Assembly: GCA_050331735.1 (NCBI GenBank)
Contig: JBHJGN010000019.1
Span: 90,603-154,602, forward strand
Direction: 5' to 3'
DNA from: Cyanophyceae cyanobacterium
Lineage (GTDB): Bacteria; Cyanobacteriota; Cyanobacteriia; Cyanobacteriales; JBHJGN01
Length of the DNA: 64,000 nucleotides
Shown here: positions 39,672 to 46,690 of the stretch, in pieces
Position numbering within the stretch: the first letter of the stretch is position 1
How the letters are laid out: every line of letters starts with the position of its first letter
Made by a program: the position numbers and the translations under genes
Notes under the pieces: generated by a model
Seen by the model: the letters and a program-made list of their open reading frames with translations, nothing else
Database searches by the model: none
Told to the model about the DNA's origin: nothing

Positions 39672-39715
39672 TGTAGCATTTAATACACTTCTCTTTTGGG
39701 AAAAACCTGTACTCT
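39672..39715 (+). promoter_or_regulatory. NtcA-activated promoter
   Basis: tGTAgcatttaaTACa (GTA-N8-TAC at 39673-39686), then TActcT -10 box 23 nt downstream. Confidence 0.8.
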
Positions 39716-39737
39716 GCTACTGTGAATAATTATTTCG

Positions 39738-39845
39738 AGCGCTTCTAGGGTTCCGATTTAAAGCTCCTTTAAATGTCTGGTCCGAGAGAAGCAGGCTATC
39801 TCTTCAAGGAAGATAGCTCCACGGCGGGAAAAAAGCCCGGGAGGA
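39738..39845 (+). ncRNA. Guanidine-I (ykkC-yxkD) riboswitch
   Basis: gcttCTAGGGTTCCG...GGTCCGAGAGaagc, stem gctatct/agatagc, CACGGCGGGA-AAAAGCCCGGGAG; upstream of gdmH. Confidence 0.93.
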
Positions 39846-39885
39846 TTTGATGCTGAAATAGTATCGCTCTTCTTGGGTGTTTTTT
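39835..39885 (+). terminator. Riboswitch expression-platform terminator
   Basis: gcccgggagga can pair (with G-U) with tcttcttgggt, followed by a T6 run. Confidence 0.7.
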
Positions 39886-39911
39886 ATTGATAGGTAAGCG
39901 GAGGAATTTTA

Positions 39912-41105
39912 ATGAGCGGACAACCCCCATTCCAGCCACCCGGTAACAACGGCAATAGCTACGCTAGCGAAGCGCAGCGAGCATTAGAGAGAGAAAGAAA
40001 CCTGCCCATGACCGGGTGGCAACAAGAAGTCGATCAGGGGTTAGAGTACGGTTTAGAAGCCGCTGACAGCATCCGCGATCGCACCATTTCGACGTTTTCG
40101 CGGGGGGAATTACCGCACTACGCGGGTATTAACACCTTTCTCAAAGCTCCCTACATTGAAGATGTTCGCACAGTCGGCAACTACGATGTCGCGATCATCG
40201 GCGTTCCTCATGACTCAGGCACCACCTATCGCCCCGGGACTCGGTTTGGACCGCAAGGTATCCGACAAATTTCAGCGCTGTACACGCCCTATAACTTTGA
40301 ATTTGGCGTAGATTTGCGAGAACAAATTACTCTCTGCGATGTCGGGGATATCTTTACCATTCCCGGCAACAACGAAAAATCCTTCGACCAGATTTCTAAA
40401 GGGATCGCTCACGTTTTTAGTTCTGGCGCTTTTCCGATTATTTTAGGCGGCGACCACTCCATTGGCTTTCCCACCGTTCGCGGCGTTTGTCGCCATCTCG
40501 GGGATAAAAAAGTCGGCATTATTCACTTCGATCGCCATGCGGATACGCAAGAAACTGACTTGGACGAACGGATGCACACCTGTCCCTGGTTTCATGCCAC
40601 CAATATGGAAAATGCCCCGGCGAAAAATTTAGTGCAGATGGGGATTGGCGGCTGGCAAGTGCCGCGTGCGGGGGTTAAAGTTTGCCGAGAACGAGAGACG
40701 GGCATTCTCACCGTCACCGATATTACGGAAATGGGCTTAGACGCGGCGGCGGATTTTGCCATTGAAAGAGCCACAGACGGCACCGACTGCGTTTATATCA
40801 GCTTCGACATCGACTGCATCGATGCAGGCTTTGTCCCCGGTACGGGCTGGCCTGAACCCGGTGGCTTACTGCCCCGCGAGGTTTTGTATCTGCTCAAAAA
40901 GATCGTGCAAAATACCCCTGTTTGCGGCTTAGAAGTGGTTGAGGTTTCTCCCCCCTACGACGTTAGCTCCATGACCGCGCTGATGGCCACTCGCGTGATT
41001 TGCGATACGATGGCGCATCTGGTGCTGTCGGGACAACTGCCGCGATCGCAAACCCCGGCTTACATTCACTCCGAAGCTCAGCAGGTCGATTCTCCGTGGA
41101 ACTAG
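39912..41105 (+). CDS. gdmH: Ni-dependent guanidine hydrolase (ureohydrolase family, Sll1077-type)
   Basis: FSRGELPHYAGINTF, GGDHS, HFDRHAD, MHTCPWF, DIDCID, GTGWPEPGG; riboswitch and hypAB context. Confidence 0.93.
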   Translation: MSGQPPFQPPGNNGNSYASEAQRALERERNLPMTGWQQEVDQGLEYGLEAADSIRDRTISTFSRGELPHYAGINTFLKAPYIEDVRTVGNYDVAIIGVPHDSGTTYRPGTRFGPQGIRQISALYTPYNFEFGVDLREQITLCDVGDIFTIPGNNEKSFDQISKGIAHVFSSGAFPIILGGDHSIGFPTVRGVCRHLGDKKVGIIHFDRHADTQETDLDERMHTCPWFHATNMENAPAKNLVQMGIGGWQVPRAGVKVCRERETGILTVTDITEMGLDAAADFAIERATDGTDCVYISFDIDCIDAGFVPGTGWPEPGGLLPREVLYLLKKIVQNTPVCGLEVVEVSPPYDVSSMTALMATRVICDTMAHLVLSGQLPRSQTPAYIHSEAQQVDSPWN

Positions 41106-41108
41106 GGA

Positions 41109-41265
41109 GCGCCGCAGGCGCAGGGGAAGGAGGAAAGGGAGGGTAGGGAGGGTGATGAAGTTTATCCCTAGCCCTGTGTTCTTTTCCCGTCCCGCCAGGA
41201 ACAGTTTCCCCTTTACCCGTTCCGTAGGAACAATTTCCCCCTTCCCCGTCCCGCCAGGGACAAAC
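41109..41265. repeat. Repeat cluster with micro-hairpins inside the guanidine operon
   Basis: gcgcc-gca-ggcgc, gttcc-gta-ggaac, gtccc-gcca-gggac in purine/pyrimidine runs. Confidence 0.8.
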
Positions 41266-41314
41266 CTCCACAAGCTATCGGCTTACGCAGAACTAGAAGA
41301 GAAAAGGTGTTTCA

Positions 41315-41686
41315 ATGCACGAAACTGATATGACGAAGGCTCTCATTATCACGGTTAGGGATTGGTGGGAGACGCAGCCGGAATCGCCCAAAATTAACAA
41401 GATTCATCTAATTGTGGGGCAGTTTACCTGTGTTGAACCGGTGAGTTTACAGTTTGCTTTTGAGGCTCAAACTCGTGACACCTTTCTAGAAGGAGTTGAA
41501 CTAGCCATTAAAGAAACACCTCTCATTGCTTACTGCCATCGCTGTCAGCAGGAATACAAACCTAAGCTAGGACTGCAATATGCTTGTCCTGAGTGCCAAG
41601 CACCGATGGAAGATATTCGCTCTGGACGAGAATTGAAAATCGACCGTATCGAATATTCAGAGCAAGCAAACTCCATTCACGGATAA
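41315..41686 (+). CDS. hypA: Nickel metallochaperone HypA (GhaA type)
   Basis: MHE N-terminus, CHRC..CPEC, SGRELKI. Confidence 0.93.
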   Translation: MHETDMTKALIITVRDWWETQPESPKINKIHLIVGQFTCVEPVSLQFAFEAQTRDTFLEGVELAIKETPLIAYCHRCQQEYKPKLGLQYACPECQAPMEDIRSGRELKIDRIEYSEQANSIHG

Positions 41687-41696
41687 CTGAAAAACT

Positions 41697-42395
41697 ATGC
41701 ATCAAACATTCGACGCAGCTTTAGAAGTTAATTTACTCCATGCTAATCAGCAGGGCGCAGACCACAATCGAGAACATTTCGATCGCTGGGGGATTACCTG
41801 TCTCAATATTATGAGCAGTCCTGGGGCGGGAAAAACGGTGTTGCTCGAACAAACCCTCAAGGCGCTGACAACAAAGTTTAAGATAGCCGTTATTGAAGGA
41901 GATATGACGACCGAACTGGATGCTGACCGCCTGCGCCAGTATAACGTTCCCGTGATTCCCATCAATACCGGACGTTCCTGCCATCTTGATTCAAAAATGG
42001 TGGCGGGAGGGTTGCATACTCTCGAACAGCACTATCAGCCCCAAGATTTTGATTTAGTATTGGTGGAAAACGTTGGTAATCTTGTTTGTCCTGCGGAATT
42101 TGAGGTGGGAGAACACGCGAAAGTGGCGCTTCTTAGCGTTACAGAAGGAGAAGATAAGCCTTTAAAGTATCCGGTGATGTTTCAAGAAGCAGATTGTTTA
42201 TTAATCACTAAAACTGATTTAGCACCTTATCTAGACATTGATCTAGAAAAGATTAGGGCCAACGTGCGGCAAATGAACCCCCAGGTAGCCATTATTTCTG
42301 TATCCGCTAAGACAGGTGATGGGTTAGAAACGTGGTTCGATTGGATTGGGAACTGTATTCAGCAAAATCGAGCAAAGTTGGCAGCGACGGCTTAA
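41697..42395 (+). CDS. hypB: Nickel-insertion GTPase HypB (GhaB type)
   Basis: [36 protein letters not shown]. Confidence 0.95.
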
Positions 42396-42485
42396 AAATA
42401 GCTGTTATCCATCAGCCTGAGAAATCTAATAGCTAATAGCTAATAGCTATTTCAATATAATATCGGTCTAAAACGAGGAGAAATA

Positions 42486-43973
42486 ATGACTGAAACACTT
42501 TTATTTTGGGGAATTTTACTATTCCTTTTTGCAACCATCGGCATCGGCATTTGGGCAGCTAAGCAAGTCAAAGGGGATAGTGAAAACTACCTCGTCGCCG
42601 GTAGGGGACTAGTTTTACCTCTAGCAGCAGCAACTCTGATGGCCCAATCCGTTGACTCCAACGCGACTTTAGGAAACACGGATTTGTCGGCGGAATTTGG
42701 TTTTTGGGCGGGGGCATCTTTGCCTCTAGGTTTAGCTCTCTGTTTGTTCATGACGGCACTTTTCTTTGCTAAACCAATGAACCGCATGGGACTAATTACC
42801 TTACCGGATTTCTATCGCGTTAAATACAATCGCCTCACTGAAGTCGTGGCATCTGTTCTAATGGTGTTGAGCTTTGCTTTTCTATTGGCTGGAAACATGG
42901 TTGCCGGCGGCTACCTGTTTGAAGCTTTTTTAGGAACGAGCTATACGGCAGGAGTGATGATGCTGGCGATTGTTGTTTTTATCTATACGGCAAGCGGAGG
43001 ACTGTTTGCCGTAGCCTATACGGATGCAATTCAAGTAGCGATCGCCTTTGTTGGTTCGATTAGTCTCTTTGCCTTTATTATCGCCAACTTTGGTTTAACC
43101 ATTCCAGCGGGTACAGGTCCGTTTGCGTTGGCTCAACTCACCGATCCGGCTATGGGAGCAGCGATCAACTGGGCAACACTTTTGGCTTTAGGATTAGGGG
43201 ATATTGTCGCTGTCGATTTTATGGCGCGAGTCTTTGCCGCAGAAAGTCCAGAAACGGCTCAAAGAGCCTGCTTAATTGGCTGTGCAGGGACGATTATCAT
43301 CGGAGTTCCATTTTCCTTGATTGCGCTCTCGGCAAACGACATACTGGCAGCAGCCGGAGTGAGTGCTGATGGACCGATTCTGTTTGCTCTCCTCGGTAGT
43401 GTTGTTCCTCCCATTTTGGCACTACTCGTCATCGTAGCAATCTTATCAGCTTCTCTATCCACCGCCGATGGAGCCATTTTAGGCACATCTTCAGTCATCG
43501 CTCATAACATCATTGGTATTCGTCACGACGACCATACAGCAGGCGGAGACAGACTCCTATTGGTCACCCGCGCTATGGCTTTGGTTATGACGCTGTTTGG
43601 GGTTTTCTTTGCCTTGAGAGTTCCCCAAACCGGAGTGTTACTATTGCTCGCTTTCGATCTGGGGTTTGCCGGATTGCTTGTTCCGCTTGCTGGCGGACTC
43701 TACTGGCCTAAATCGACTTGGCAGGGCGCACTTTCCTGCATCATTTTAGGATCGCTGACGCGATTAGTAATGTTTGTGTTGATGCCAACTATGTTTGGAA
43801 GCGAAAATACGCTGCTGTATATTCCTAACAACTTATTTACAGCAGATTTCGATGGGTTTCCGACCCTGATCAGTCCTCTGGTGGGGTTGGTTGCGTTTAT
43901 CGTCGTGTCTAACATGACGAAGAAAGGAGAAGTGTCAACAGAGGAACGAGAGGCCCAATTATATCGCGGCTGA
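42486..43973 (+). CDS. Sodium:solute symporter (SSS/SLC5), candidate guanidinium importer
   Basis: Many TM helices; YLVAGRGL, TLPDFY, YTASGGLFAVAYTDAIQ, SASLSTAD; GAGGAG RBS. Confidence 0.88.
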   Translation: MTETLLFWGILLFLFATIGIGIWAAKQVKGDSENYLVAGRGLVLPLAAATLMAQSVDSNATLGNTDLSAEFGFWAGASLPLGLALCLFMTALFFAKPMNRMGLITLPDFYRVKYNRLTEVVASVLMVLSFAFLLAGNMVAGGYLFEAFLGTSYTAGVMMLAIVVFIYTASGGLFAVAYTDAIQVAIAFVGSISLFAFIIANFGLTIPAGTGPFALAQLTDPAMGAAINWATLLALGLGDIVAVDFMARVFAAESPETAQRACLIGCAGTIIIGVPFSLIALSANDILAAAGVSADGPILFALLGSVVPPILALLVIVAILSASLSTADGAILGTSSVIAHNIIGIRHDDHTAGGDRLLLVTRAMALVMTLFGVFFALRVPQTGVLLLLAFDLGFAGLLVPLAGGLYWPKSTWQGALSCIILGSLTRLVMFVLMPTMFGSENTLLYIPNNLFTADFDGFPTLISPLVGLVAFIVVSNMTKKGEVSTEEREAQLYRG

Positions 43974-44123: not shown

Positions 44124-44483
44124 TTAACGATAGTAAGTCACGCCGCGATATTTTAACTGAATGGGTTGAGCAGGCTTGGCTGTCTTCTGGGCTTTGCTCA
44201 GCGTTAGGTACCAACAGCGCTCAAGTACTTCTAATTCATTCAACAGCAAACAGAAGTTTAAGTATTGGCGCTTGTGACCATACCAAAACGTTACCGGATC
44301 GATCACTGGTTTTGCTTCTGAGCGCTGAAATAGCTGTTTAAGGTACTTAAACAAAGGAAAATGAGGTTTAATCGTCGCCTTGACGTATCCTTGGCAATGC
44401 GCTGGGCGATCGCCTACGGCCACTCCTGATGCCGATTTTGGCTCATCTCCGCTGTACGGTACTCCTCGATAGATGAGTTTCAT
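44124..44483 (-). CDS. DUF4278 domain protein
   Basis: MKLIYRGVPY at the N-terminus, LKYRGVTY at the C-terminus; GGAGG RBS. Confidence 0.85.
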   Translation of the reverse strand: MKLIYRGVPYSGDEPKSASGVAVGDRPAHCQGYVKATIKPHFPLFKYLKQLFQRSEAKPVIDPVTFWYGHKRQYLNFCLLLNELEVLERCWYLTLSKAQKTAKPAQPIQLKYRGVTYYR

Positions 44484-44518
44484 TCGCGCCACCTCCAAAG
44501 ATGCTGCATTAATTGTGA

Positions 44519-44590
44519 GGTGCGTTCCTTCAGGATCGTTAAACTTGTCCCTACTTCCGTCTCCCGGCTAGATATGAAGAGATGAACGGC
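44519..44590 (-). ncRNA. Glutamine riboswitch (glnA motif)
   Basis: Minus strand CGTTCAtctc...gagACGGAAGTAGG...cctGAAGGAACGc, directly 5' of the DUF4278 gene. Confidence 0.88.
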
Positions 44591-44687: not shown

Positions 44688-45431
44688 CTAGGACGATGAC
44701 AGGACGCGCTCCAAAAATGCCGTGATTTCTGCCCAGGCAGTATCCGTAGCCGCAGGATCGTAGCGATAGCCATCATCCCGCATGAAGGTATGGTTGTTTT
44801 CGTAGAGCAGCGACTGGTGGCGCACTCCTGCTTTATCAAAGGCTTGGAGAATTGTTTGCCGACCTTCCGGGGGAACGTGGGGATCGATCGTCCCAAACAG
44901 CGTCAGGACTTCTCCTTTAATTTCACCGACTCGTTCCTTCGTATCCGCAACTCCGCGACCGAGCTTGCCGCTGTGGATGCCGGTCGGATAGCAGCAGACG
45001 GCAGCTTTGACCTGACTTTGTAGCGCCGCTCGTAAGGCTAAATGGCCCCCAATACAAAAGCCCATTGCGCCCAATTTACTAGGTATTACGGTGTTCTCTG
45101 ACTGGAGCCACTCCAGAACCGCCTGAGCATCGGCGTCATATTCAGCGATCGCCGTTCGTCGGGCATCATCGTTGCCGCGCAGCTTTCCGAGATCGGTCGG
45201 TTCGATCGCGGTCCCAATCGGTTCGAGGCGATGAAAGATTTCTGGGGCAGCAACGACGTAGCCGTATCCTGCCAGACGATCGGCCAGCAGCGTGATTGGT
45301 CTGCCTAACTGGTAAATATCCGAATAAAACAGAATGCCAGGGTATTGCCCTGCTGGTTCTGGGGCAGCAACGTAGACACGCATCAGGCTATCGTCTACCG
45401 TCAACCCCAGATTGCGTTTGGTAATCTGCAA
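44688..45431 (-). CDS. Dienelactone hydrolase family protein
   Basis: YSDIYQ, GFCIGG nucleophile elbow, DPHVP, HTFMRDDG. Confidence 0.92.
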   Translation of the reverse strand: MQITKRNLGLTVDDSLMRVYVAAPEPAGQYPGILFYSDIYQLGRPITLLADRLAGYGYVVAAPEIFHRLEPIGTAIEPTDLGKLRGNDDARRTAIAEYDADAQAVLEWLQSENTVIPSKLGAMGFCIGGHLALRAALQSQVKAAVCCYPTGIHSGKLGRGVADTKERVGEIKGEVLTLFGTIDPHVPPEGRQTILQAFDKAGVRHQSLLYENNHTFMRDDGYRYDPAATDTAWAEITAFLERVLSSS

Positions 45432-45553: not shown

Positions 45554-46690
45554 CTATTGCTCGAGTTCTTTCAGCAGCTCTTTAGAAATGACTCCATGTA
45601 TTCCTTTGACAATATCTACTACTTGAGACACTTCATAATCGATCGCTGCGCTGCCAAGCAGGAGAGCATCTTGTTTAGTCAAGCCGTACTTGGTTTCGAC
45701 AATTTCCAAAGATTCCCGAACCGCTTTCTTCATGGCCTCATCTAAATCCTCGTCTAAGCCAATGGAGAGCCAAGCTTGGGGCGTTTCTCCCATCGGAGAA
45801 TCGAGCTGCATATCTTTGTGGACAATGAGCTGGAAAGTTGGAGTCAAAGAGCATTCAATGGCCGTCAGCGCCACTTCTCCGTTGCCTTGAGCGCAGTGGG
45901 GGTCGCCGCTGTAAAACAGTGCTCCTGGAACCTGCACCGGGAGATAGAGACTTGATGTTTCAACGAGGTGCTTAATATCGACATTGCCACCGTAGTTTCC
46001 CGGGGGAATAGAGTTGACGGCATCTTCTGGGTCGAAAGGAGCGACCCCCATAATTCCCATAAAGGGATTGAGAGGAATTTCGATGTTTGGGCGATCATTA
46101 GCGGGGCGAAAGATGCCGACGCCTCGCTCGATATCCAACGGAATCACCTTGGTGTAAATTTCGGCATCATTGACGGGATATTCTCCCGGTAAAGCTCCTT
46201 TACTGTGACGATTGGAGATCACGCCGTAGGGAACCCGATACTCAATGTCAAGGGTTTTGACCTCCAGCACATCTCCTGGTTCCGCCCCTTCAACATAGAT
46301 AGGTCCGGTAATGACATGGGGACCGGGTGCCGTTCTTTCAATATTTTGCTTGACGGCAAGCTGATCGCCGAGAATCTCCTCTTCGGCAATGCCAGCCTTC
46401 GTAAAAAACTCCACCGTGTCTCCCTGATCCGGCAAAATTCCCTCATGAGAAACGGTTTCTAAAGTCACAATCGCCCCCGACTCTACCCGCAGAATTGGTT
46501 CGCTGTCGGGCTTAAATAGCTCTCCCCAAATAACGTGATCTGGAGTAGACTGCACCATATAGGTTTCAGTCTGCTCAGATTGCCCCACGACAGGGGAAAA
46601 AGAACCAATAGCCCACAACAGCGTGGCGACTAATACCGTTCCTCCTAGCCACGACCACCGACGAAACCGAAGCATGCGCAAATACTGCAT
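45554..46690 (-). CDS. Acetamidase/formamidase family protein with N-terminal signal peptide
   Basis: HVITGPIYVEGAEPGDVL, GGNVD, GDPHCAQGNGEVALTAIE; basic plus hydrophobic leader. Confidence 0.88.
   Translation of the reverse strand: MQYLRMLRFRRWSWLGGTVLVATLLWAIGSFSPVVGQSEQTETYMVQSTPDHVIWGELFKPDSEPILRVESGAIVTLETVSHEGILPDQGDTVEFFTKAGIAEEEILGDQLAVKQNIERTAPGPHVITGPIYVEGAEPGDVLEVKTLDIEYRVPYGVISNRHSKGALPGEYPVNDAEIYTKVIPLDIERGVGIFRPANDRPNIEIPLNPFMGIMGVAPFDPEDAVNSIPPGNYGGNVDIKHLVETSSLYLPVQVPGALFYSGDPHCAQGNGEVALTAIECSLTPTFQLIVHKDMQLDSPMGETPQAWLSIGLDEDLDEAMKKAVRESLEIVETKYGLTKQDALLLGSAAIDYEVSQVVDIVKGIHGVISKELLKELEQ

Follow-up and report, generated by a model that had tools for sequence, protein, structure and literature searches.

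Guanidine has only recently been recognized as a nitrogen source for bacteria, and two types of importer have been published for it, namely the ATP-binding cassette (ABC) transporter GimABC, whose function has been shown, and an APC permease, for which import is predicted. The locus described here raises the question of how guanidine enters a cell that has the genes for using it next to a transporter gene of neither type. It lies in a 64,000-nt stretch of DNA (hereafter, the window) from a Cyanophyceae cyanobacterium (GenBank assembly GCA_050331735.1, contig JBHJGN010000019.1), and it ends in a gene for a 495-residue protein of the sodium:solute symporter (SSS) family. From sequence comparison, we consider this protein to be a secondary-active guanidinium importer, most likely coupled to Na+, with a probability of about 0.72; import of guanidinium taken by itself appears to us equally or slightly more probable, and Na+ coupling specifically less so. 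A first-pass annotation of the window had proposed such a role, and comparison supports it through the linkage of the gene to gdmH and guanidine riboswitches, its restriction to gdmH-bearing genomes in an even sample, its complementarity to GimA, a conserved Na2 site, and acidic and polar residues specific to the clade. Direction of transport, coupling ion, and substrate are predictions for now.

The elements that the annotation had listed, i.e., an NtcA box, a guanidine-I riboswitch with its terminator, gdmH, hypA, hypB, and the co-oriented SSS gene, are all present where it had placed them (Table 1; coordinates are positions in the window, and all operon elements lie on the + strand). Its start at 39672 is the T preceding the NtcA box. 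The strong ribosome-binding site that it had noted for SSS is a GAGGAG located 5 nt ahead of the ATG. The next gene downstream of SSS is convergent with it, and the window locus lacks genes for an ABC transporter.

Table 1. Features of the guanidine operon in the window, of its surroundings, and of related loci. Handles beginning with L denote loci outside the window.
Feature	Position	Strand	Evidence or remark
NtcA-type box GTAgcatttaaTAC	39673-39686	+	GTAN8TAC motif, sequence reading
-10-like hexamer TACTCT (TAN3T)	39710-39715	+	23 nt downstream of the NtcA box
Guanidine-I riboswitch aptamer	39734-39845	+	Rfam RF00442, 89.1 bits, E 1.2e-14
Intrinsic terminator of the expression platform	39828-39885	+	hairpin and U6; overlaps the 3' strand of the aptamer; also in terminator scan
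gdmH, Ni-dependent guanidine hydrolase, 397 aa	39912-41105	+	783 bits to PDB 7esr/7oi1; PF00491
17-nt direct repeat CCGTCCCGCCAGGRACA	41187-41203 and 41246-41262		59 nt apart
hypA-type nickel chaperone (ghaA of PMC12704784)	41315-41686	+	PF01155; TIGR00100 116.8 bits, above cut-off
hypB-type nickel GTPase (ghaB)	41697-42395	+	TIGR00073 314.7 bits, above cut-off
hypB-SSS spacer, 90 nt	42396-42485	+	three TAATAGC repeats, TATAAT, GAGGAG
Ribosome-binding GAGGAG	42475-42480	+
SSS-family transporter, 495 aa, proposed Na+:guanidinium symporter	42486-43973	+	PF00474, full length
Glutamine riboswitch before 124-aa DUF4278 open reading frame	44124-44590	-	RF01739, 49.2 bits
Dienelactone hydrolase	44688-45431	-
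Acetamidase/formamidase-family protein	45554-46690	-	N-terminal hydrophobic leader
Orphan GimA-like protein, window's genome	L087:5865-6899 (= G000:C56:12864-13898)	-	other contig than the operon
Decayed guanidine-I riboswitch	L009:9786-9884
Decayed guanidine-I riboswitch	L044:1617-1712
Decayed guanidine-I riboswitch	L010:2654-2761
Decayed guanidine-I riboswitch	L041:9728-9848
Divergent guanidine-I-SSS / guanidine-III-gdmH pair	L107:8186-11106		~120 nt apart
Divergent guanidine-I-SSS / guanidine-III-gdmH pair	L108:8031-10899		~120 nt apart
gdmH homologue split over two reading frames	L014:7656-8707		frameshift or assembly error
Tandem SMR genes divergent from SSS	L052:9102-9941	-
Tandem SMR genes divergent from SSS	L070:9032-9813	-
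Haloarchaeal trio SSS-regulator-ureohydrolase (example)	L071:10001-14205

Upstream of gdmH, the GTAN8TAC box stands ahead of the TAN3T hexamer at about the 22-nt distance of NtcA-activated promoters, and it precedes the riboswitch by 61 nt. In 30 of 33 relatives with an intact riboswitch, a GTAN8TAC motif lies within 150 nt upstream of it, and in 25 of the 33 it lies 48-64 nt ahead, as in the window; the background frequency in the same loci is 161 of 9,101 windows of 150 nt (1.8%). We infer that an NtcA-activated promoter precedes the riboswitch. The RF00442 hit covers the full model (positions 1-107) at a score well above the gathering score of 63 bits, and it is the sole copy in the 5.57-Mb genome. 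The terminator takes the aptamer's 3' GCCCGGGAG as its 5' arm, such that the expression platform competes with the aptamer; the terminator fold (-26.7 kcal/mol, z -3.4) was equalled by none of 200 shuffles. Sharing of a strand between aptamer and terminator is the usual ON-switch design.

The window's GdmH is clearly orthologous to the solved Synechocystis enzyme (E 5e-235). It keeps the signature Trp of guanidinases (W305 in Synechocystis) in a PGTGW motif ('pgtgwpepgg' aligned), a residue named as such in PMC11410670, and HypA/HypB-type nickel chaperones adjoin it. Since the genome also encodes a urease alpha subunit, its guanidine pathway is complete. The 209-nt spacer between gdmH and hypA contains the direct repeat CCGTCCCGCCAGGRACA, of which the window holds no further copy.

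The first-pass annotation had set a neighbourhood survey of this SSS clade as a test beforehand, and the outcome was favourable in two phyla. The best 80 of 208 loci with SSS relatives were surveyed, comprising 64 cyanobacterial loci (65-86% identity), one Actinomycetota metagenome-assembled genome (MAG), one Polyangiaceae MAG, and 14 haloarchaeal loci (55-60%). We sorted the cyanobacterial loci by tblastn, Rfam, and a purpose-built covariance model run over all 80 loci. This analysis uncovered gdmH (80-91% identical) in 32 of the 64, with 29 of them showing the arrangement gdmH...hypA-hypB-SSS on one strand and three having gdmH divergent. Another two have hypB directly before SSS at a contig edge, so SSS lies in or beside a gdmH/hyp operon in 34 of the 64 cyanobacterial loci. 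Five further loci without gdmH (L004, L012, L038, L046, and L067) carry an intact guanidine-I riboswitch (Rfam, 77-89 bits) directly before SSS, 96-350 nt ahead of its start. In addition, four loci (L009, L010, L041, and L044) have a decayed guanidine-I riboswitch before SSS, below the Rfam threshold and scoring 27-48 bits with the purpose-built model, in which the P1/P1a stems are deleted or core positions mutated; this pattern suggests that riboswitch control of SSS has been lost repeatedly. The remaining loci have remnants of hyp genes (two), less than 400 nt upstream of SSS and so not assessable (six), or no link (13).

Unsupervised clustering of 969 neighbouring open reading frames (ORFs) revealed that no families other than gdmH, hypA, and hypB recur across the cyanobacterial set. 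A lineage-specific DUF4278 gene recurs beside SSS in 13 loci, and a regulator does so in nine haloarchaeal loci. In a quick tree, the SSS genes directly behind a riboswitch are scattered over four positions, and loci with the operon form belong to several families. Judging by their record titles, many SSS bearers, marine cyanobacteria and haloarchaea among them, are named for marine or hypersaline settings, which fits the saline habitat that the first-pass annotation had in mind.

A class-I methyltransferase and a glutathione S-transferase (eight loci each) also recur near SSS (L003, L008, L018, L020, L023, L028, L030, L051, and others), in most of these loci inside a widened gdmH-hypA interval; the methyltransferase of L028 is found beyond hypA. 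A UreE gene adjoins SSS in L041.

The association extends to Actinomycetota, of which 301 genomes were sampled and eight, counting the MAG of L014, have an SSS orthologue. In seven of the eight, SSS either follows a riboswitch and gdmH or has a guanidine-I riboswitch of its own. More specifically, the order guanidine-I, gdmH (with the signature Trp), SSS occurs in five (L014, L102, L103, L104, and L105), and urease genes follow in four of these (L014, L102, L103, and L105). L107 and L108 have guanidine-I directly before SSS and, divergently, guanidine-III before gdmH. No other single observation speaks as strongly for guanidine handling by the SSS protein as this use of two riboswitch classes for one ligand, each guarding one of the two genes. 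The gdmH homologue of L014 is split over two reading frames (Table 1).

Of 401 evenly sampled cyanobacterial genomes, 55 carry gdmH and nine an SSS orthologue, all nine being gdmH-positive (hypergeometric p = 7e-8 by genome and 2e-4 by genus, both of which overstate the association, relatives being non-independent). SSS and gdmH adjoin in the window's genome and four others, lie on different contigs in three, and are on contigs too short to judge in one. In one of the genomes with the two genes on different contigs (G264), one guanidine-I riboswitch precedes SSS and another precedes gdmH.

The same sample bears on the relation to GimABC. A GimA-like protein occurs in 44 of the 54 other gdmH genomes, mostly beside gdmH, and six of the 10 gdmH genomes without one are SSS-positive. 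It is found in two of eight SSS genomes versus 42 of 46 genomes without SSS ([[2,6],[42,4]], Fisher p = 2e-4, which overstates because related genomes are not independent). This largely complementary pattern, with some overlap, is what two alternative solutions to one task would produce.

With these data, the thought that SSS is an unrelated neighbour without a guanidine role can be weighed. The public names of its relatives are generic ('sodium:solute symporter family protein', 'Na+/proline symporter') for all 37 that carry a name in the list of the 120 closest, and the 13 unlinked cyanobacterial loci would fit a chance association. Against this stand the same gene order in several cyanobacterial families and in Actinomycetota, the riboswitches that some SSS copies have of their own, and the gdmH-positive status of all nine SSS genomes. 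The 'proline' name itself lacks support, as the PutP model TIGR02121 gives 108 bits versus a cut-off of 515.5 and NF011948 gives 64.8 versus 955; PutP is rejected. We regard a mere neighbour as barely credible, and this explanation was already strongly disfavoured.

The protein itself is a regular SSS member (TC 2.A.21), matching all 406 positions of the PF00474 profile (1-406; E 4.5e-32, 111.9 bits versus a cut-off of 22.8). Its AlphaFold2 model (pLDDT 81.4, pTM 0.83) has a LeuT-type fold, and the 34 top-listed Foldseek matches are all SSS carriers (CHT1, SGLT1/2, NIS, SiaT, vSGLT, and SMCT1). The closest solved relative is the high-affinity choline transporter CHT1/SLC5A7, a Na+/Cl-/choline carrier, together with the bacterial sfCHT (PDB 8j74, 9bfi, and 9rws), both by sequence (E 1e-18; overall identity about 21-23%) and by fold (Foldseek ranks 1-7, TM-score 0.70-0.78). 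CHT1 also belongs to the SSS family and carries a small organic cation, as the proposed guanidinium importer would. We mapped the CHT1 sites, as given in PMC11589582 and bioRxiv 10.1101/2025.09.30.678764, onto the SSS protein via a phmmer alignment. The Na2 site, with its ligands on transmembrane helices 1 and 8, is present, and its CHT1 residues A343/S346/S347 correspond to A322/S325/T326, invariant in 83 clade sequences (76 plus seven from Actinomycetota). The Na3 aspartates D188/D349 of CHT1 correspond to D180/D328, kept in all cyanobacterial, Polyangiaceae, and haloarchaeal rows inspected, with Na3 S350 being replaced by G329; D66 takes the place of the vestibule acid E73, and D391 that of D411.

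Where CHT1 and the window protein differ is the substrate site. The six positions of the choline cage (W62, Y67, Y91, W141, W254, and W406) hold S55, A60, L83, L133, A242, and L386, all of them small or aliphatic, and VDSNA stands in place of the chloride loop VGGGY. With cage and chloride loop missing from the alignment to the described CHT1 sites, a choline carrier is rejected. Seven residues, D57, N59, N64, D66, N137, D244, and D391, show no variation among the 76 sequences first aligned, and the seven Actinomycetota rows added to these agree; the genome's own distant SSS paralogue differs at all five of the seven positions that align. D57 sits in the break of transmembrane helix 1, where the chloride loop lies in the CHT1 description. 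A fixed carboxylate in a pocket free of aromatic residues would suit a small, planar, hydrogen-bonding cation.

The sodium sites also bear on whether the carrier could import guanidinium without sodium, with protons or the membrane potential by itself as the driving force. The potential alone could drive a cation substrate, and seven of eight Actinomycetota members have substitutions in Na3 (D180 to S/A, D328 to T/N), affecting one position or both. The Na2 ligands, however, are invariant throughout and match the Na+-binding residues of CHT1, and the marine or hypersaline names among the bearers also speak for sodium. We consider import of this kind to be quite unlikely.

Several results weigh against the proposed Na+-coupled importer, the variable Na3 site of the Actinomycetota among them; the case for sodium coupling is one of residue conservation, and the score for the NCBIfam model TIGR00813 (111.8 bits) falls under its curated cut-off of 184. 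The first-pass annotation had named homologues unlinked to guanidine genes as counterevidence. Such homologues do exist: 13 of the 58 assessable cyanobacterial loci have no gdmH, hyp gene, or riboswitch nearby, and in one of the eight Actinomycetota (L106) there is no guanidine link within 8 kb of SSS. They are not the majority. Of 10 genomes with unlinked loci that were checked, six have gdmH elsewhere. The other four (the genomes of L035, L052, L063, and L070; three of the four assemblies are MAGs) have no gdmH (E<=1e-60), no RF00442, and no DUF1989. An alternative guanidine pathway was sought in them through DUF1989, the carboxyguanidine deiminase family (0/4), and RF00442 (0/4), and was rejected. 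The SSS orthologue thus persists in four genomes without any known guanidine-degrading enzyme. In addition, the SSS proteins of L052, L063, and L070 form one clade, with genes beside paired SMR genes or a urea transporter (UT).

Replacement of the ABC importer is also not strict, because L039, L043, and L055 hold GimAB-like genes together with SSS and because the window's genome keeps an orphan GimA-like (SsuA-family) protein, which shares 65% identity with the GimA-like protein linked to gdmH in L043. No permease or ATPase gene lies beside this orphan, and the window's genome has no close GimB (best match 31%). The SSS protein matches PF00474 only, and its locus has none of the genes for a NitT/TauT-type binding protein, permease, and ATPase that define GimABC. 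The first-pass wording 'instead of an ABC importer' therefore holds for the locus, which has no ABC gene, but not without reserve for the genome, which has a GimA-like binding protein elsewhere. The orphan is flanked by genes for a PBP_like_2 protein, a DJ-1/PfpI protein, and a metallophosphatase.

The haloarchaeal members deviate furthest. Their 14 orthologues have no riboswitch, and in 12 of the 14 loci a ureohydrolase gene lies ~1.5 kb downstream of SSS. In at least nine, a regulator with MazE/AbrB and PhoU domains lies between the two, forming a conserved trio (Table 1). The ureohydrolase has GdmH as its best PDB match (201 bits versus 168 for guanidinobutyrase). Its motif reads PGTGE, with Glu at the position of the guanidinase Trp (PGTGW) in 12 of 12, and its identification as a guanidinase or GdmH is rejected on that ground. 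Because the partner ureohydrolase has Glu for Trp, part of the SSS clade may carry a substituted guanidine. A urease gene stands at the edge of haloarchaeal locus L032.

These observations are the substance of the alternative in which SSS carries another nitrogen compound of guanidine metabolism, such as urea (the product of GdmH), methylguanidine, agmatine, or another guanidino compound. The SSS family includes the urea carrier DUR3, a UT gene adjoins SSS in L063 and L070 and UreE in L041, four genomes have SSS without gdmH, and the haloarchaeal orthologues are paired with a ureohydrolase that is not a guanidinase. Nevertheless, guanidine-I stands directly before SSS in five cyanobacterial and two Actinomycetota loci, and this class is reported not to recognize other guanidino metabolites (PMC11410670). 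SSS is also complementary to GimA, a protein that binds its ligand guanidine with 97 nM affinity (PMC12704784). D57, D244, and D391, carboxylates that do not vary in the clade, fit a cationic substrate rather than neutral urea, and a neighbouring UT would render a second urea carrier redundant. DUR3 (PDB 9j7c, 9x5u, and 9vim) shares family and fold with the SSS protein and carries a small nitrogenous substrate that chemically resembles guanidine. It is a much weaker structural match (Foldseek ranks 35-38, TM-score 0.57-0.66), has a neutral substrate, and gives no sequence match to the window SSS at E<=0.001. Overall, a different substrate appears unlikely to us. The UT proteins upstream of SSS in L063 and L070 belong to one cluster, and that of L070, the only member scanned, is fused to EF-hands.

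A reversed direction of transport, with SSS as a riboswitch-triggered safety valve like Gdx, is a further alternative. Transporters under guanidine riboswitches are mostly exporters (PMC12186494), and paired SMR genes adjoin SSS in L052 and L070. In three of four of these SMR genes the best NCBIfam family is SugE, all below cut-off. Gdx/SugE proteins resemble the proposed importer in being guanidinium-specific carriers under guanidine riboswitches, but they are four-helix SMR dimers of an unrelated fold and proton antiporters working in the opposite direction. The characterized SSS proteins matched here (CHT1, SGLT, NIS, SiaT, and DUR3) are uptake carriers, and an inward Na+ gradient and a negative-inside potential would both oppose export of a cation. 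In addition, SSS occurs in assimilation operons with gdmH and urease, behind NtcA boxes, and in the genome profile it replaces an importer, not an exporter. Export thus strikes us as very improbable.

Returning to uptake of guanidinium, we examined whether SSS could share the transcript of gdmH. The terminator scan found no + strand terminator in the window's hypB-SSS spacer, and the hairpin there is insignificant (z -1.22). In 29 of 30 operon loci this spacer measures 35-258 nt (median 91), with a T5 run in just one of the 29. GTAN8TAC is absent from all 29 and from the window's spacer, and an internal NtcA promoter before SSS is rejected. On this basis, SSS is probably co-transcribed with gdmH-hypA-hypB. 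The spacer does hold a perfect TATAAT, and because of it SSS may have a separate, weak promoter of its own, a further point to be set against the proposal.

We postulate the following sequence of events. Under nitrogen limitation, NtcA would start transcription of the operon. Guanidine bound to the aptamer would hold the GCCCGGGAG strand in P3, so that the terminator could not form, and polymerase would read through gdmH, hypA, hypB, and SSS; the symporter would thereby be made from the same NtcA-activated, riboswitch-gated transcript as GdmH and its nickel chaperones. The symporter would concentrate guanidinium in the cell, GdmH would split it to urea and ammonium, and the urease of the genome would finish the pathway. 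In its bearers, SSS would do the job that GimABC does in Synechocystis.

One close counterpart is the gdmH-ghaA-ghaB-gimABC operon of Synechocystis sp. PCC 6803 (sll1077-sll1082; PMC12704784). That operon shares with the window NtcA control, guanidine-I, GdmH, two HypA/HypB-type chaperones in equal order, and a transporter at the 3' end. It differs in that its transporter is an ATP-driven, three-part ABC system, whereas the window has one SSS polypeptide, and in that gimABC has its own NtcA promoter, whereas SSS follows hypB after 90 nt without an NtcA box. Of the GimABC system, the window's genome has just the orphan GimA-like protein elsewhere. Synechocystis mutants in gimA or gimB fail when guanidine is supplied at 0.1 mM or below, and the same study states that there must be another uptake route (PMC12704784). 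The second counterpart, described in PMC11410670, is an APC-superfamily permease of comammox Nitrospira, for which guanidine import is predicted. Like SSS, it is a single, ATP-independent polypeptide in a guanidine-I riboswitch-guanidinase operon. It is set apart by its family name, the window protein matching PF00474 only and keeping a sodium site, and by gene order, with the permease first and no nickel chaperones in the comammox operon versus the transporter last and hypA/hypB present in the window.

That guanidine was not known as a demonstrated substrate of SSS proteins, as the first-pass annotation had remarked, agrees with the literature covered: full-text searches, which did not extend to the gene-association lists of Nelson et al. 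2017 and Funck et al. 2022, found nothing linking SSS proteins to guanidine. The word 'symporter' is absent from PMC12704784, its preprint, PMC11410670, PMC12186494, and PMC12623156, as well as from one supplement of PMC12704784 and 12 of 15 supplements of PMC11410670. The operon is thus a member of the known NtcA/guanidine-I/gdmH/hyp system of cyanobacteria, but its transporter falls outside both published importer types and would, as predicted from its sequence, represent a new class of uptake protein.

Just downstream of the operon, the window holds genes for a dienelactone hydrolase and an acetamidase/formamidase-family protein (Table 1). The ORF converging on SSS encodes a 124-residue DUF4278 protein behind a glutamine riboswitch, and we take it to be probably a gene of the glutamine-synthetase-inactivating-factor type. 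A homologue of this ORF adjoins SSS in 13 loci, and a glutamine riboswitch was also scored in six of the 13.

A wider and decidedly more speculative reading, which in all its parts together we hold to be doubtful, is that the SSS clade constitutes a cross-domain family of sodium-driven guanidinium-group carriers. In cyanobacteria and Actinomycetota, it would supply the missing ATP-independent, guanidine-I-gated importer. Its marine and halophilic members would have kept two sodium sites, and most Actinomycetota would have lost the second. In haloarchaea, SSS together with the AbrB/PhoU-type regulator and the GdmH-related PGTGE ureohydrolase might form the first archaeal nitrogen pathway for guanidino compounds. 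D57, in place of the CHT1 chloride, might be what turns a choline-type site into a guanidinium site.

If the proposed function holds, a sodium-coupled symporter would be a third and energetically cheaper route of guanidine uptake, beside GimABC and the APC permease, and the substrate range of the SSS/SLC5 family would extend to the smallest organic cation. The annotations 'Na+/proline symporter' and 'sodium:solute symporter' of these proteins would then be corrected. In addition, the riboswitch-based expression tools that are now in development in cyanobacteria would gain an uptake module consisting of a single gene.

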